IMG/VR virus record: IMGVR_UViG_3300001525_000584
Coordinates: 32,001 to 96,000 of that record
Source of the DNA: a virus
Lineage: Duplodnaviria > Caudoviricetes
Length of the DNA stretch: 64,000 nt
Strand: one strand, 5' to 3'
The notes beneath the pieces are model-generated. The model did no database searches. It worked only from the letters and a program-made list of their open reading frames with translations, and was not told the origin of the DNA. The position numbers were made by a program, and so were the translations under genes. This document shows positions 34,599-40,668 of the stretch, piece by piece. Each line of letters opens with the position of its first letter. The first letter of the stretch is position 1.

Positions 34599-36821
34599 GT
34601 GTTAGAATCGCTTAACGGAGTTAAATTTGAATATAAAAGACTAACAGAGTCTGAGCAAAAGGCTAGAGGCATTTTGGGTAGACTGGTTGGTCCTATTGCA
34701 GATTTTAAGAATCCTACACGTAACGGCAGAAAATATTCTGAGAAACTGTGGGAAAATGTCTTTGCAAATCCTATTATGCAGGAAAAGATTAAAAACCGAG
34801 TTTGTTTTGGTGAATTAGGTCATCCTGCAGATAGAACAGAGACTGATATAGAGAAGGTTGCTATTTGTCTTGCCGAGCAACCTAAAAAAGGAAAAGACGG
34901 TAAGATTTACGGAGTGTTTGATATTTTATCTACACCAAATGGTAAATTACTGAAGACGCTTTGTGATTATGGTTGTAACATCGGCATCAGTTCCAGAGGC
35001 CAGGGTGATTTAAGTACTGATGAAGATGGAGATGAAGCAGTTGATCCTGATACATATGATTGCGAATGTTGGGATGCTGTTTTAGTTCCCGGTGTTGAAA
35101 CGGCCAGATTAAAATATGTAAACGAGAGTTTAAATAAAACAAATAAGCTAAAGCTTGCATTAACAGAATCTTTAAATGCCGCAAGCGACGAGGCTAGAAG
35201 GGTGATGGAGGAAACTTTGAGTAACTTAAACATTCAGTTAAATGAAGCTGTTGCAAAAGAGTTTAAGTTGGATGACTGTGTTCAACTCAAAGATGCAGCT
35301 GAAGCAAAGGCACTGGCACAAAAGCTAAAAGCAAATTGGTCTTTTGGTGCTGATGAATCTTTAGGTGTTGATACGGGTGCAAAATGCTTTGAGATGTTTG
35401 TAAAAGAGATGGATCTTTACGTTTATGAAGATGGAAAAGATAGTCTTTGTTTCGGCATTAAAAAAGATGGTTCTGTATACGGTCCTTTTAATATAGACAG
35501 TGAAGTAGTTAAAGGTGTTAATATCAGTGTTAATTTGCCTGAGGCTATTAAAGAAGATTTAGAAGATAAGGACGAAGAAAAAGTAGATGAAGCAAAAAAG
35601 GATTCTGAAGAAGAATCTAAAGAGGAAAAATCTGAAGAAACAGAAGAAGTAGAAACTGTTGATTTTGGTGAATTATCTCCTTTAGATGTTCCCGAAGAGC
35701 CTGCTGAAGATGCCAAAAATGCAGAAGAAGCTCCCGAAGAAACTGCAGACGAAATTGAGGTTGCAGAAGTAGAAGAGCCTGAAGAAACAGAAGAAGAAAA
35801 ATCTGATGAAGAAATTTTCTTAGACTTTTTAGCGAATAATTTTGACGAAGATCAGGTTAAAGAGGTCGCAAAGATCTTAGACATCGAAATTGTTGATGAA
35901 GATGGTAACCCTGTTGAGGAAAAGCCTGAAGAAAATTCTGAAGAAGAAAATGCTGAAGAAGCAGAAGAAAAAACTGCAGAGTCCGATGAGGATTCTGAAG
36001 ATATAAATGGTGATGAAGAAGACGCTAATGAAGATGCTGAAAACGATGAAAAAGCCGTCGCGGAAGGATTTGCAAAGTTAGTAAGCAACTTAAAAGAAGC
36101 CCTCAAAGTAAGATCTGATTTAGAAGCTGAACTTAAAACGTTACAGGAAAAGTTGGCAGTTAGCGAGGCTAAGGTTAATAGTTCTGAGGCGAATAACACT
36201 AAGTTAAAAGAGGCTGTTATAAGGCTCTCCGCAGTAACTAAATCAAACAAAGATCTAAAAGAGAAAACTTCTGAATTAGATGAAACTTTAAAATCACGTG
36301 AAGACACTATAGCTAAACTGACCGAAAAATTAAAGCAAACAGAAAAATCTGTTCAAAGTCAAAAGCAGTTAAATGAAAACTTAGATTCACAAAAATCTAA
36401 AGTTACTGAGACTACTAAGGCTTTAAATGAACAAATAACCATTAATCAAAAGCAAAAAACAGAGATGCAGAGATTAACAGAGCAGGTTAATAAACAAACT
36501 TCTTTAAAGGAGAGTTATAAAAAATTAGCCAACAAAGCTGTTAATAAATACATCGATGTTAAAGCAGAAACACTCGGACTAACTCCTCAAGAGATCAAAC
36601 GCAAATTAGGTGAGTCCTACACTATGGAGGATGTTGATCAGGTTTGCGAAGATCTGAAAAAATACTATTTTGATGTAAGTAATTTACCTTTTCAAGCAAA
36701 TAGAAAAATAGGAGTTAGAGTCAACGAGAATGCCTCAAAAAAGCTGCCTCAAAACACTAATACAAATAGTGATGATGAAGTAGATGATTTACTTATGAAA
36801 ATGGCACGCTTTGGAGGTTAA
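34599..36821 (+). CDS. Prohead protease (gp21-like) fused to an acidic/coiled-coil scaffold
   Basis: 'NGRKYS', 'GELGHP', 'TPNG', 'GISSRGQG', 'WDAV..P' protease motifs; followed by an E-rich linker and coiled coil; directly before the capsid gene. Confidence 0.85.
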   Translation: MLESLNGVKFEYKRLTESEQKARGILGRLVGPIADFKNPTRNGRKYSEKLWENVFANPIMQEKIKNRVCFGELGHPADRTETDIEKVAICLAEQPKKGKDGKIYGVFDILSTPNGKLLKTLCDYGCNIGISSRGQGDLSTDEDGDEAVDPDTYDCECWDAVLVPGVETARLKYVNESLNKTNKLKLALTESLNAASDEARRVMEETLSNLNIQLNEAVAKEFKLDDCVQLKDAAEAKALAQKLKANWSFGADESLGVDTGAKCFEMFVKEMDLYVYEDGKDSLCFGIKKDGSVYGPFNIDSEVVKGVNISVNLPEAIKEDLEDKDEEKVDEAKKDSEEESKEEKSEETEEVETVDFGELSPLDVPEEPAEDAKNAEEAPEETADEIEVAEVEEPEETEEEKSDEEIFLDFLANNFDEDQVKEVAKILDIEIVDEDGNPVEEKPEENSEEENAEEAEEKTAESDEDSEDINGDEEDANEDAENDEKAVAEGFAKLVSNLKEALKVRSDLEAELKTLQEKLAVSEAKVNSSEANNTKLKEAVIRLSAVTKSNKDLKEKTSELDETLKSREDTIAKLTEKLKQTEKSVQSQKQLNENLDSQKSKVTETTKALNEQITINQKQKTEMQRLTEQVNKQTSLKESYKKLANKAVNKYIDVKAETLGLTPQEIKRKLGESYTMEDVDQVCEDLKKYYFDVSNLPFQANRKIGVRVNENASKKLPQNTNTNSDDEVDDLLMKMARFGG

Positions 36822-36858: not shown

Positions 36859-39800
36859 ATGAATATTTGCGAAGCTTATGCAAAAAAGCTATCTATCTCT
36901 GAGAAGGTTTATCAGCAAGAGCATGGTGGCCGTGCACTGTCCGAAAACAAAAAGCTTGCTATTGCACGCGTCCTGGCAAACACCTCTGAGTACATCACTG
37001 AGGCTTTTGAAAACTCCAGTGCAACTCAGCTGGCTAACATGAAGACCTACAAAAAATTTTGTCTCGATTTGACAACTGTAGCCCTTAAATGAGGAGGGGC
37101 GTTAAGCAGAAATGTTTAACGAGAGATTAATCATAAATAAATGATTAATCAAAACACACCTAACTCGGGGAAAAGCCTAAAATTATTCATTAAAATTTTA
37201 GGTTAATCGCCGAACTAAATTCAGGTTGAGATACCTGATAAATTGCGGAACGACTATCGAAAGCTATATAATAAATATGAAAATATTTATTTGAAAATAA
37301 GACATATAAAAAATGTACGAAGCGAGTAGAGTAGGACCTAAGTAGGTTCGAAAAGGTGTGGGACCATTTATTTGGTAAAAGAATAGTGGTTCGTGATATA
37401 GTCTCAACATTTATAGTAATATAAAGAGAGTAATTGGAAACGAATTATTCGTAAGAAAAGTTGTCCTTCATTAATTAGTAATGATTTAGTTATCGTATAT
37501 CCTATGAAGAGCAGAACCGGCTTTATTCAATATTAAGAATCTTAGTATTGCTCCACAGTGATGTGGATGAAAAAATAACCTCATTAAACGCTGGAAACCC
37601 CTAAAGCCTATAAAACCACAGCACAATTCGAAAGAATATTTGCGAAGGTTGCGAAAGCGGAAAAAATTTATAGGATGCATAAATGGTGTAAAACCTGCCT
37701 ATGCACTGCAGTAGATAAAAAGAATAATGGGCAATCAGCAAATAGAATTTATGAAAATTTTTTAATTAAAAAGTTTCTCCTAATTTTTAATTAAAGATTT
37801 GGTTTTCATAGATTCGTTTCAACGACTATCGAAAAGATATCTTAGAAGAAACATCTAAGAGAATAACTGAGTAGAGTAGAGATACGTTCTCAAAAGATGA
37901 GGCATCCGCCGAGGTTAATACAAAAGCGGATGATAATATAGTCTGAACATAGTAGAAATGCTATGAGTTTGGTATTACTGATAGATAATCAAACGCTGTA
38001 ACGTAAAAAAAGAAGTATTCTTTACAGAGGATCACATGGAACAAAAAATCACAAAAGAAGAAAAATGTCGCATGACCCAAAAGGGTCGGATGGTTATACA
38101 CAAAGGACATATAGAAAAACGTATATATCTTGAGCAGTTATTAGAGTATCAACAAAAGGGTTGGGAAAAGGGCACCTCCGAAAAGCATCGAGTTAATAGT
38201 GGTAAGGCGCATGTAGGTCATGAGCCTTGGAACAAAGGCACTAAAGGCGTTATGAAGGGCTCCAGTAGCACCTGGCGTAAAGGCCATGAACCCTGGAACA
38301 AAAACAAAAACCCCAGCACACTTATGCCTGAAGATATGCAGAACGCCATAGTACAGTATTATACTAATGAATGCAATTCTTTAGGTGCATGTGCGGAACA
38401 CTTTGGCCTTAAGATGTATACTGTATATACGATTTTAAAAGCCTGGGGAGCCGTGCGCACCACGTATCAAGCTTCTATAAATAGAACAGAAGAAACCCTA
38501 CGCATGAAGGCTTCAAAGGATTATTTAACCAGAAAGAAAAATAATACTTTTAGGTCCAGTCGTCCCGAAAATGCTTTGTATGAAGAACTATTAACGACAT
38601 ATAAACATAAAACTATATACCGGCAGTATAAAGAAGCTCGATATCCTTTTTATTGTGATTTTTATATTAAAGAAGATGATTTGTTTATTGAGTTAAATAA
38701 TCATTGGACCCATGGCGGGCATCCTTATAATCCAGAGAGTTTAGAAGATCAGCAGAAATTAGCTCAATGGACTGAAAAAGCAAAAACTTCTAAATTTTAT
38801 AAAAACGCTATTGAAGTGTGGACCGTTAGAGATGTTGCGAAACAACGTATAGCAAAAGAAAATAATTTAAACTATAAGGTTATCTATTAAGAATATTTAT
38901 GAATAACAAATTTGATAAGATTTGTGGCCGGGAGTGATAAGGGGGGCGTAAAGCGGGGCGACCTGTTCAGCGATCCCTTTAAGATGGGCAAGATGACAGA
39001 AGACCGTGTTCGTTACACTGGTGCTACTGTTGTCGAAACTGTTAAAGAAGATGGTAAAGTTGACTGGATGCAGAACGGCCGTGTTGGTTGTATGCAGAAC
39101 GGTGAATTTGTTGAAGGTAAAGTTGAGAAGCTGAATGATGGCGCAGAGAGTACCTTTGTTGCTGTCGCAGACCTGAAAAAGGACGATAAGGTTTCTTATA
39201 TTTATGACAACGTTATTATCCCTCAAAATGATATCCCTCAGTTAGTTGCAGAGGTCGATGGTATCGAGCTTGCAGCTAAAGCGCGGAGAATTGGTATTTA
39301 CTATTCTCAAATGGCAGCTTAACCTAAAGTTAGTAGAAACTTTAGAAAAGGCATTTTGCAAAGTGATTTGCAAAACAAGATCTCTCTAATTGCTGGAAAC
39401 CCCTAAAGCATATCCACCAAAGCAGAATGATGAAAAATGCATATATGTTATGGTTGCGAAAGTAGAAAAAACGGATATGATGAATCCAAGCTGCAAAGCT
39501 AAAGGTTCTTATCAAATGGGCAATCAAGCAGCCAAGGCTCGAATAGAGCAAGGTTCAACGACTAACCGCTCGCCACGGTGTAGAGTTCAAGTGAATTCGA
39601 AATGGGAGATATCTCTAAAACATAAAAAGTTTAGAGATAAAGATATAGTCTCGTCATCCTATGAAAATAGGAGGATTATGAAAATTAATCAACACATAGT
39701 AACGACATGTGTTTAAGATATACGTTCCAGGCAAAGACTGAGATGGGTATTGATCTTGGTGAAGTTCTGGCCACACAGGCGTGTGCGGAGCTCAGCTATA

Positions 39801-40668
39801 GAAAATTTGTAGCCTAATATAGTAATATATTAGTGAAAACCACGTGAACTCATGGAAACCCTGATAAGAATTGGTATCGCTTATCTGGCAATCATGATCT
39901 AAGGATTAGTCATTTTAAAATGATTAGTCAAAGAGCAACGACTATCGAAAGTATAGCGTAAAAGAAACATTTACGCGAATAAATGAGTAGAGTACGTCCC
40001 AAGTGGGATGGAAGTGCGTGGACTCCTATAGAGGTTAATACGATATAGGAGTATGATATAGTCTCATCGTATAACGAATACATAAGTTATAGAGAATAAT
40101 CGGAAACGGATTATTCGTAAGACAAATGGAAATTGATACTGAAATTGTTAAGATGCTCTGCGATAACGCAGGTGATCCGGAAAAGGATGCTGAGCTCATA
40201 GATGCGGGCTTAGTATGGTCCAAGACTCTTCCTGTTGGCGTTTCTAAGCGTGATCACTATGCAGGCTTTGCAGAAGTTATCGAAAGAGCTTCTCAGGTCA
40301 TTTATGATCGTACTCAAAAACACGCTGCAAACTATATGATCATCGCTTCTAATATTAAGCCTATTCTCGTCATGATGGAGGGCTTCAAAGCAGCTTCTAC
40401 TGCTAAGATCAACGGTCCTTATTATGCAGGTGAGTTGAATGGTGTTAAGGTTTATGTATCTCCTGCTATCGAGCCCGGCAAGTTCGTGCTCGGTTATAAT
40501 GGCGGTGATATGTTAACTTCTGCAGCTGTTTACTCCCCCTATATGGCCATCGTTCCTACGATGTTGTTAGGATTTGCAGACGGCGGTCAATCGCAAGGAT
40601 TTTCTGCCCTCTATGATCTAAAGATGCTCAATAAGTGTCTGCTAGTCGCGGGCAAAGTTATTGACTAA
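36859..40668 (+). CDS. Major capsid protein (gp23-like), five exons: 36859-37085, 37464-37533, 38915-39319, 39725-39799, 40129-40668; 438 aa spliced
   Basis: Exons sum to 1317 nt in one frame: ...TVAL|PSLISNDLVIVYPMKSRTGFIQY|IRFV...YSQMAA|FQAKTEMGIDLGEVLATQACAELSY|EIDTEIV...YAGELNG.KVYV...AVYSPY, all gp23-like motifs. Confidence 0.9.
37086..37463 (+). ncRNA. Group I intron 1 (378 nt)
   Basis: P1 gccct/ggggc with U-G; AACGACTA and GATATAGTCT core (P7); terminal G; P10 aatgagga with exon tccttcatt. Confidence 0.85.
37534..38914 (+). mobile_element. Group I intron 2 (1381 nt) carrying a homing endonuclease ORF
   Basis: P1 caatat/gtattg with U-G; AACGACTA and ATATAGTCT core; terminal G; P10 aatctta/taagatt. 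Confidence 0.88.
38036..38890 (+). CDS. Intron-encoded homing endonuclease, NUMOD-like repeats plus Vsr-like (EDxHD-type) nuclease
   Basis: GHEPWNK occurs twice; 'SRPE...CDFY...FIELNNHWTHG' resembles the Vsr/DUF559 fold; own GAGGA RBS; lies 3' of P7. Confidence 0.7.
   Translation: MEQKITKEEKCRMTQKGRMVIHKGHIEKRIYLEQLLEYQQKGWEKGTSEKHRVNSGKAHVGHEPWNKGTKGVMKGSSSTWRKGHEPWNKNKNPSTLMPEDMQNAIVQYYTNECNSLGACAEHFGLKMYTVYTILKAWGAVRTTYQASINRTEETLRMKASKDYLTRKKNNTFRSSRPENALYEELLTTYKHKTIYRQYKEARYPFYCDFYIKEDDLFIELNNHWTHGGHPYNPESLEDQQKLAQWTEKAKTSKFYKNAIEVWTVRDVAKQRIAKENNLNYKVIY
39320..39724 (+). ncRNA. Group I intron 3 (405 nt)
   Basis: GCTGGAAACCCC, GGCAATCAAGC, AACGACTA and AAGATATAGTCT cores; ends in G; removal restores the capsid frame. 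Confidence 0.85.
39800..40128 (+). ncRNA. Group I intron 4 (329 nt)
   Basis: P1 gctat/gtagc with U-G; AACGACTA and GATATAGTCT core; ends in G before GAAATT. Confidence 0.87.

Follow-up and report, generated by a model that had tools for sequence, protein, structure and literature searches.

The major capsid gene of the large uncultured phage represented by the IMG/VR record IMGVR_UViG_3300001525_000584 is very probably divided into five exons by four related, mobile group I introns, the splicing of which would yield a single gp23-family protein of 438 amino acids (aa). The record is a complete genome of 217,629 bp with direct terminal repeats, and the window considered here, 64,000 nucleotides (nt) in length, corresponds to its bases 32001–96000; all window coordinates are counted from the first base of the window, and the capsid locus lies on the + strand (Table 1). 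As listed open reading frames (ORFs), positions 36859–40668 offer only fragments (77 aa for the first, 136 aa in the middle and 180 aa for the last) together with an unrelated-looking ORF of 284 aa. Removal of the four introns leaves a frame of 1317 nt, encoding 438 aa plus the stop codon and free of internal stops, the introns representing 2493 of the 3810 nt of the locus (65%). The five exons, the intron boundaries and lengths, and the share of about two-thirds of intronic sequence had all been proposed in an earlier note on this DNA, and every one of them was confirmed. When the spliced protein was compared with the whole genome by tblastn, these five pieces alone were returned and no second gp23-like gene was found; therefore, since the genome holds no other capsid gene, splicing would be obligatory.

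The identity of the product is supported along its whole length. Exon 1 is preceded by an AGGAG ribosome-binding site some 8 nt 5' of the ATG, and the alignment with homologues begins at residue 1. At the other end, exon 5 alone matches the Pfam family Gp23 PF07068 with 60.9 bits (E 1.9e-16, cut-off 24.4) over profile positions 185–331 of 376, and also PHROG 138, the 'major head protein'. When longer proteins were searched with exon 5, 2399 relatives were obtained, of which the best 120 are mostly 420–450 aa in length and all carry PF07068. The earlier note had suggested alignment to intron-less homologues as a means of verification. In that comparison, 115 full-length uninterrupted gp23-family proteins aligned continuously with the spliced 438-aa product: the 3 residues on either side of each junction are free of gaps, and none of these homologues adds a column to the spliced sequence. 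In addition, at about 20 IMG/VR loci a single tblastn high-scoring segment pair covers residues 1–438.

The position of the junctions is equally well defined. At junctions 2 and 4 no slide is possible, while junctions 1 and 3 admit a slide of 1 nt and are placed where they are because the terminal-G rule chooses among the alternatives. As the earlier note had observed, each of the four introns follows a T (U in the RNA) at the end of the 5' exon and ends in G, a rule which also holds for the 14 introns mapped in relatives. The two micro-exons, of 70 and 75 nt, which that note had joined to the same gp23-like frame, were corroborated both by the alignment and by the pattern of codon positions. 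For the 75-nt micro-exon, the third codon position holds 8 of the 9 differences against the closest relative (contig L032) and 16 of the 17 against a further one (L033). For the 70-nt micro-exon, the differences at codon positions 1/2/3 are 4/3/13, 3/4/12, 3/3/7 and 3/3/10 against four intron-less IMG/VR loci, and only 5 in all (0/2/3) against L032, which has no intron at site 99/100. This third-position excess implies that both micro-exons are translated in the capsid frame. Moreover, among the short homologues of exon 5, 40 of the 120 listed clusters start with 'MEIDTE...' exactly at junction 4 and others start at junction 3. The last three bases of intron 4 are ATG, which creates the spurious 'MEIDTE' start in the window; since intact proteins have Tyr at this position and not Met, the start codon derives from the last bases of the intron.

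Concerning the introns themselves, each opens with a P1 hairpin, directly followed by a P2 hairpin, and the cores that the earlier note had recognized, AACGACTA / ATATAGTCT, are found in all four. When both strands of the 217,629-bp genome are scanned for ACGACTA followed, 40–400 nt further on, by TATAGTC (P7 and J8/7-P7'), exactly four such pairs are obtained, one per intron, and the chance expectation would be well under one by our own rough estimate, which is not a computed value. Rfam searches over the whole window or genome give matches only at intron 3 (89.1 bits, E 1.9e-21, with model RF00028) and intron 4 (57.9 bits, E 4.3e-12), both of which pass the gathering score of 50 bits, while introns 1 and 2 needed a narrow search and comparison. 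Membership of the group I core is thus firm for introns 3 and 4 and based on supporting evidence for introns 1 and 2. Part of this evidence comes from the intron that L033 carries at the same site as intron 2 (83% identical), where double compensatory changes are seen in P2 (two pairs), P8 (one) and P9 (one), and where a U-A pair of P3 is changed to G.U.

Pairing with the exons agrees with the proposed boundaries. In introns 1 to 4, P1 includes 5, 6, 3 and 5 exon pairs, respectively, the U.G pair being counted, with 4 intron pairs added in intron 2 and 3 in intron 4. P10 comprises 5–7 bp in intron 1, 7–8 bp in intron 2, whose L033 homologue shows a compensating change of register, and 5 bp in intron 4. 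The clear P1/P10 pairing which had been claimed for introns 1, 2 and 4 is therefore upheld. For intron 3, the P1 drawn in the earlier note had been called weak and is indeed so, but it gives way to a better one: unconstrained folding pairs G39317-C39352, C39318-G39351 and U39319.G39350, followed by an internal loop, beyond which the helix extends for 8 bp, with –17.9 kcal/mol vs –8.1 for the former helix. A TTG-initiated ORF of 108 aa (39390–39716, +) is contained wholly in intron 3, where it spans the ribozyme core, and was taken as a chance frame.

The four introns are related to each other. Of 19 introns examined, namely, that of Bacillus phage SP-15 and 18 belonging to the window and its relatives, 13 have a P7.2-like hairpin between P7 and P3', in which 6 bp and an AAGU loop are preserved although the stem takes nine different sequences (the helices being counted directly in Python); the pattern matched introns 1, 3 and 4 of the window, and intron 2 has a variant which falls outside the search pattern. 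Introns 2 and 4 share a block of 59 nt, 85% identical, in P7-P7.1/7.2, introns 2 and 3 an exact block of 18 nt in P3-P5, and introns 1 and 4 a 3' terminal hairpin. An arrangement of the four introns as two sister pairs was considered and holds only partly, as the sharing of blocks (1 with 4, 2 with 3, 2 with 4) is that of a mosaic. The introns look like members of subgroup IA, because P7 and P3' are separated by the additional P7.1/P7.2 hairpins.

Table 1. Exons, introns and intron-encoded gene of the capsid locus, in window coordinates (IGS, internal guide sequence).
Feature	Position	Strand	Length and content	Mapped elements
Exon 1, major capsid gene	36859–37085	+	227 nt; codons 1–75 and 2 nt of codon 76	
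Intron 1, group I	37086–37463	+	378 nt; no ORF	IGS GGGGC 37096–37100, wobble G 37096; P7 GACTA 37252–37256; P7.2 hairpin from 37331; P7' TAGTC 37399–37403; terminal G 37463
Exon 2, micro-exon	37464–37533	+	70 nt; third base of codon 76 and codons 77–99	
Intron 2, group I	37534–38914	+	1381 nt; ribozyme core 37534–37966, then endonuclease ORF after P9	IGS GTATTG 37545–37550; P2 37551–37569; P3 37579–37584/37897–37902; P7 37824–37828; P8 37903–37909/37926–37932; P7' 37939–37943; P9 37948–37965; terminal G 38914
Gene for putative homing endonuclease, within intron 2	38036–38890	+	284 aa; follows P9 of intron 2	
Exon 3	38915–39319	+	405 nt; codons 100–234; holds the variable insertion domain	
Intron 3, group I	39320–39724	+	405 nt; no credible ORF	extended P1, wobble G 39350; P2 39354–39375; P7 39560–39564; P7' 39646–39650; terminal G 39724
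Exon 4, micro-exon	39725–39799	+	75 nt; codons 235–259	
Intron 4, group I	39800–40128	+	329 nt; no ORF	IGS GTAGC 39809–39813; P7 39940–39944; P7' 40059–40063; terminal G 40128
Exon 5	40129–40668	+	540 nt; codons 260–438 and stop; Gp23 PF07068 match	

The ORF of intron 2 is predicted to encode a homing endonuclease of the Vsr-like, I-Bth0305I type. Direct searches with the 284-aa protein against Pfam, PHROGs, NCBIfam and PDB sequences gave no significant match. Its homologues number 3397 at E<=1e-3, with conservation mainly in residues 150–284, and the 64 that were aligned include 19 with DUF7487, 15 with NUMOD3, a motif typical of homing endonucleases, and 7 with HTH_28. The protein holds two GHEPWNKG-type repeats, a helix-turn-helix (HTH) at about residues 89–142 and a C-terminal Vsr/PD-(D/E)xK-like nuclease domain (174–284), in which S175, E178, Y203, C207, D208, Y210, D215, E219, W224 and H226 are invariant. 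The mean predicted local distance difference test score of the alignment-based model was 88.4, vs 52.6 for the single-sequence fold. In this model, residues 174–284 superpose on Vsr (1cw0_A; Z 8.3, root-mean-square deviation 3.0, 91 aligned) and the C-terminal domain on the catalytic domain of I-Bth0305I (3r3p_B; Z 6.5, root-mean-square deviation 2.2 A, 72 aligned, 19% identity), while Foldseek alone reached only E 0.1. I-Bth0305I (PDB 3r3p) is itself a homing endonuclease, the catalytic domain of which is Vsr-like; the window protein differs from it in having N-terminal repeats and an HTH of its own.

The sequence of events proposed for the locus is as follows. After late transcription, each of the four introns would fold and excise itself through two transesterifications, namely, attack of guanosine at the U.G pair of P1 and then ligation of the exons at the terminal G, with P10 as the guide, leaving a 1317-nt mRNA from which the 438-aa capsid protein would be made. 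The introns would be mobile selfish elements and not regulators, the four of them standing at different stages of the homing cycle, and introns 1, 3 and 4 would be ORF-less versions of same-site introns which bear endonuclease genes in relatives. A scan of the capsid locus for promoters and terminators gave the same counts as shuffled sequence.

The relatives allow this proposal to be set in a wider context. A megablast search of the capsid locus against the phage collection gave no near-identical DNA match. Of five relatives whose DNA was compared, the closest is L032, with a protein 92–96% identical and four introns, at codon boundary 68/69, codon 76, 234/235 and 259/260. Other relatives carry introns at 68/69, 99/100 and 234/235 (L033), at 68/69 and 234/235 (L034), at 237/238, about 243 and 259/260, that is, three introns within 25 codons (L035, with micro-exons of 16 and 50 nt), or a single one at 237/238 (L036). 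The clade uses at least 7 insertion sites in the capsid gene, all of them in conserved stretches and none in the variable insertion domain. In L032, the intron at the site of intron 1 holds an ORF of 314 aa and that at the site of intron 4 one of 500 aa (DUF7487), both inserted near the 5' ends of their introns, while the window counterparts are ORF-less. When window positions 37086–40128 were compared with L032:2794–7003, the shared introns proved to be 95% (intron 1), 99% (intron 3) and 94% (intron 4) identical and the flanking exons 86–88%, the gene upstream of the capsid gene being 91% identical. That introns are more alike than exons suggests a recent transfer of the introns.

The boundaries themselves could be seen in a contig from the Logan run ERR14838872 (L038:2646–4006), which is 97–99% identical to L033/L034 and is devoid of their three introns. 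Its breakpoints coincide with the predicted junctions, exactly at two of them and within 1 nt at 234/235, and include the window sites 99/100 and 234/235. This contig either comes from a sister strain whose homing sites are empty or represents spliced RNA, and the boundaries are confirmed in either case. As a separate observation, relatives possess micro-exons even smaller than those of the window, of 21 nt in L032 (L032:2773–2793, from 68/69 to codon 76) and of 16 nt in L035 (L035:5423–5438, from 237/238 to about 243), each enclosed on both sides by group I introns, which follow the U...G rule. The P10 of the upstream intron and the P1 of the downstream one must share such an exon of 16–21 nt.

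Several points weigh against a capsid gene split by four self-splicing mobile introns. Splicing and its efficiency are predicted from the DNA sequence; a search for RNA sequencing runs that contain the locus listed none, which has no bearing on its expression. With RF00028, intron 1 reaches 30 bits in a narrow search (E 6.4e-6, model positions 1–253), under the Rfam gathering score, while for intron 2 the match is partial and, with 18.5 bits, not significant, probably due to its long P5 and P6 insertions and its 3' ORF. In intron 3, the exon pairs of P1 are the fewest and P10 is very weak (2 bp), and therefore the choice of the 3' splice site must use other contacts. The subgroup assignment is our own reading of the inserts in the Rfam alignment. 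Finally, introns 1, 3 and 4 have no endonuclease of their own, and that of intron 2 is recognized by its family and fold, its activity being presumed.

A fragmented gene that is never spliced, either the dead capsid gene of a defective phage or a set of pieces translated separately and assembled after translation, could be argued from the first of these points, and there is a precedent in the NrdA of Aeromonas phage Aeh1, split by mobE, as cited in a passage of PMC7344957. Nevertheless, this is extremely unlikely. The genome is complete, bears terminal repeats and contains this capsid gene alone; exons and micro-exons show purifying selection at codon level; the micro-exons, of 23 and 25 codons, have neither a start codon nor a ribosome-binding site of their own; an in-frame stop occurs within 0–5 codons of every intron start; and compensatory changes maintain the ribozyme helices. 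The same stops in the capsid frame, together with the ribozyme cores, ruled out inteins. A mis-stitching of intron-like sequences into the capsid gene, which might be feared since the genome is a metagenome assembly, has next to no probability: the same introns appear at the same sites in independent assemblies of other samples (L032, L033, L034, L035), the clusters of short homologues that start at junction 4 carry the intron-derived start codon, and the frame is restored to the nucleotide.

A different question is what the introns are for. In the earlier note they had been interpreted as a GTP/Mg-sensitive checkpoint on head assembly, in which four splicing events would gate the output of capsid protein and link it to the energy state of the cell. 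Circumstantially, this would accord with the fact that the one capsid gene holds every group I intron of the genome, four in number, and that splicing is obligatory, there being no second copy of the gene. However, close relatives make the same protein with 0–4 introns at differing sites, and therefore no intron is conserved as a regulatory device would be; the locus also bears the marks of recent horizontal spread, with introns exceeding exons in similarity and ORF-bearing and ORF-less forms at one site, and nothing in the sequence points to any sensor. Such a checkpoint found no support and is considered very improbable, while mobile selfish introns fit the data, which also include an endonuclease gene inside an intron and near-identical phages that have or lack a given intron.

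By analogy, the capsid introns and their endonucleases might also be weapons between co-infecting related phages, and not passengers, a competitive role for which the intron endonuclease gp210 of PhiPA3 is a demonstrated precedent (PMC11620839). We regard this as rather unlikely. If it were true, an endonuclease that cleaves a rival's capsid allele where the intron is absent would disable the late gene which that rival needs most and drag flanking markers into the progeny, the mosaic of at least 7 sites, whose occupation differs between near-identical phages, would record an arms race over the capsid gene, and the micro-exons of 16–21 nt in relatives would represent the limit of packing density for such elements.

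Returning to the four mobile introns of the capsid gene, comparison with known systems is instructive. In phage T4, the group I introns of td, nrdB and nrdD (sunY) likewise have the P7.1/P7.2 extension and encode endonucleases, and in that of nrdD the ORF lies 3' of the core, the same layout as in intron 2. Unlike those of the window, the T4 introns are found in nucleotide-metabolism genes, one per gene, and their endonucleases are GIY-YIG and HNH enzymes. As cited in PMC6669764, orf142 of Staphylococcus phage Twort has three introns (Landthaler and Shub 1999), the splicing of which is reported to have been demonstrated experimentally; it differs from the window locus in having three introns and not four and in being a gene of different function. 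The statement of the earlier note that phage group I introns are best documented in nucleotide-metabolism and replication genes overlooks those of capsid genes (LittleE, Tuc2009, crAss-like Zeta, SP-15).

In fact, mycobacteriophage LittleE and lactococcal phage Tuc2009 have an intron of group I type in the major capsid gene (Pope et al. 2013, PMC3706429). The LittleE intron contains the gene of a homing endonuclease, and both reverse transcription PCR and N-terminal sequencing of the protein over the junction demonstrated that the intron is spliced (PMC3706429). Both differ from the window phage in having a single intron per gene and in being siphoviruses with HK97-type capsid genes. More similar in architecture is the crAss-like Zeta-group genome OLRF01000054, whose major capsid ORF is in five fragments, 3 of the 4 spacers encoding proteins of group-I-intron type (Yutin et al. 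2021, PMC7886860). It resembles the window in the five-piece capsid gene, in belonging to an uncultured phage (from the gut) and in its identification only in silico, but the phage order is another, as is the capsid family (not gp23/PF07068). Its introns were recognized through endonuclease ORFs, while those of the window, 3 of 4 of which have no ORF, were recognized through ribozyme cores, with splice sites and micro-exons mapped to the base. Phage CB7 (PMC7344957) and a paper on a Lactobacillus plantarum phage (PMC6669764) were also considered as precedents for capsid introns and discarded, since neither reports such introns.

The closest cultured relative of the capsid protein is that of Bacillus phage SP-15 (KT624200, Thornevirus; 222 kb), encoded by SP15_032 and 33% identical over exon 5. 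In GenBank, the two pieces joined to form the gp23-like gene of this phage (L037:2008–4525) flank a Phage_endo_I endonuclease ORF, and the intron scores 38 bits with RF00028. As in the window, there is a P7.2 hairpin with an AAGU loop and a 3' terminal hairpin, and the 3' exon starts in the FQAKT..G.D region, near the site of intron 3, the insertion position being approximate. Unlike the window, SP-15 has one intron and not four, and the endonuclease is of the Phage_endo_I family.

Intron-laden capsid genes of phages are, then, already described, and the window locus opens no new category; what is new is the gp23-type capsid gene of a large uncultured phage, the mapping at base level and the clade-wide picture. 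If the introns splice as proposed, a T4-type (gp23-family) capsid gene would accommodate four obligatory self-splicing events in the making of the most abundant protein of the phage. In this uncultured clade, the capsid gene is a recurrent target of mobile introns. A practical consequence is that gene callers fragment such capsid genes and, therefore, marker-gene surveys and capsid-based classification miss or miscount them. For bench work, the locus offers a compact natural set of related putative ribozymes together with a predicted Vsr-like homing endonuclease.

As regards the surroundings of the locus, the capsid gene has a T4-type portal, an S77 prohead protease and gp13 as neighbours in relatives. 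Directly upstream of it in the window there is an ORF of 740 aa (34599–36821, +), whose counterparts in relatives carry Peptidase_S77 (prohead protease of T4 gp21 type). This ORF has a very long, acidic, low-complexity middle part, rich in Glu/Asp, and looks like a fusion of protease and scaffold.

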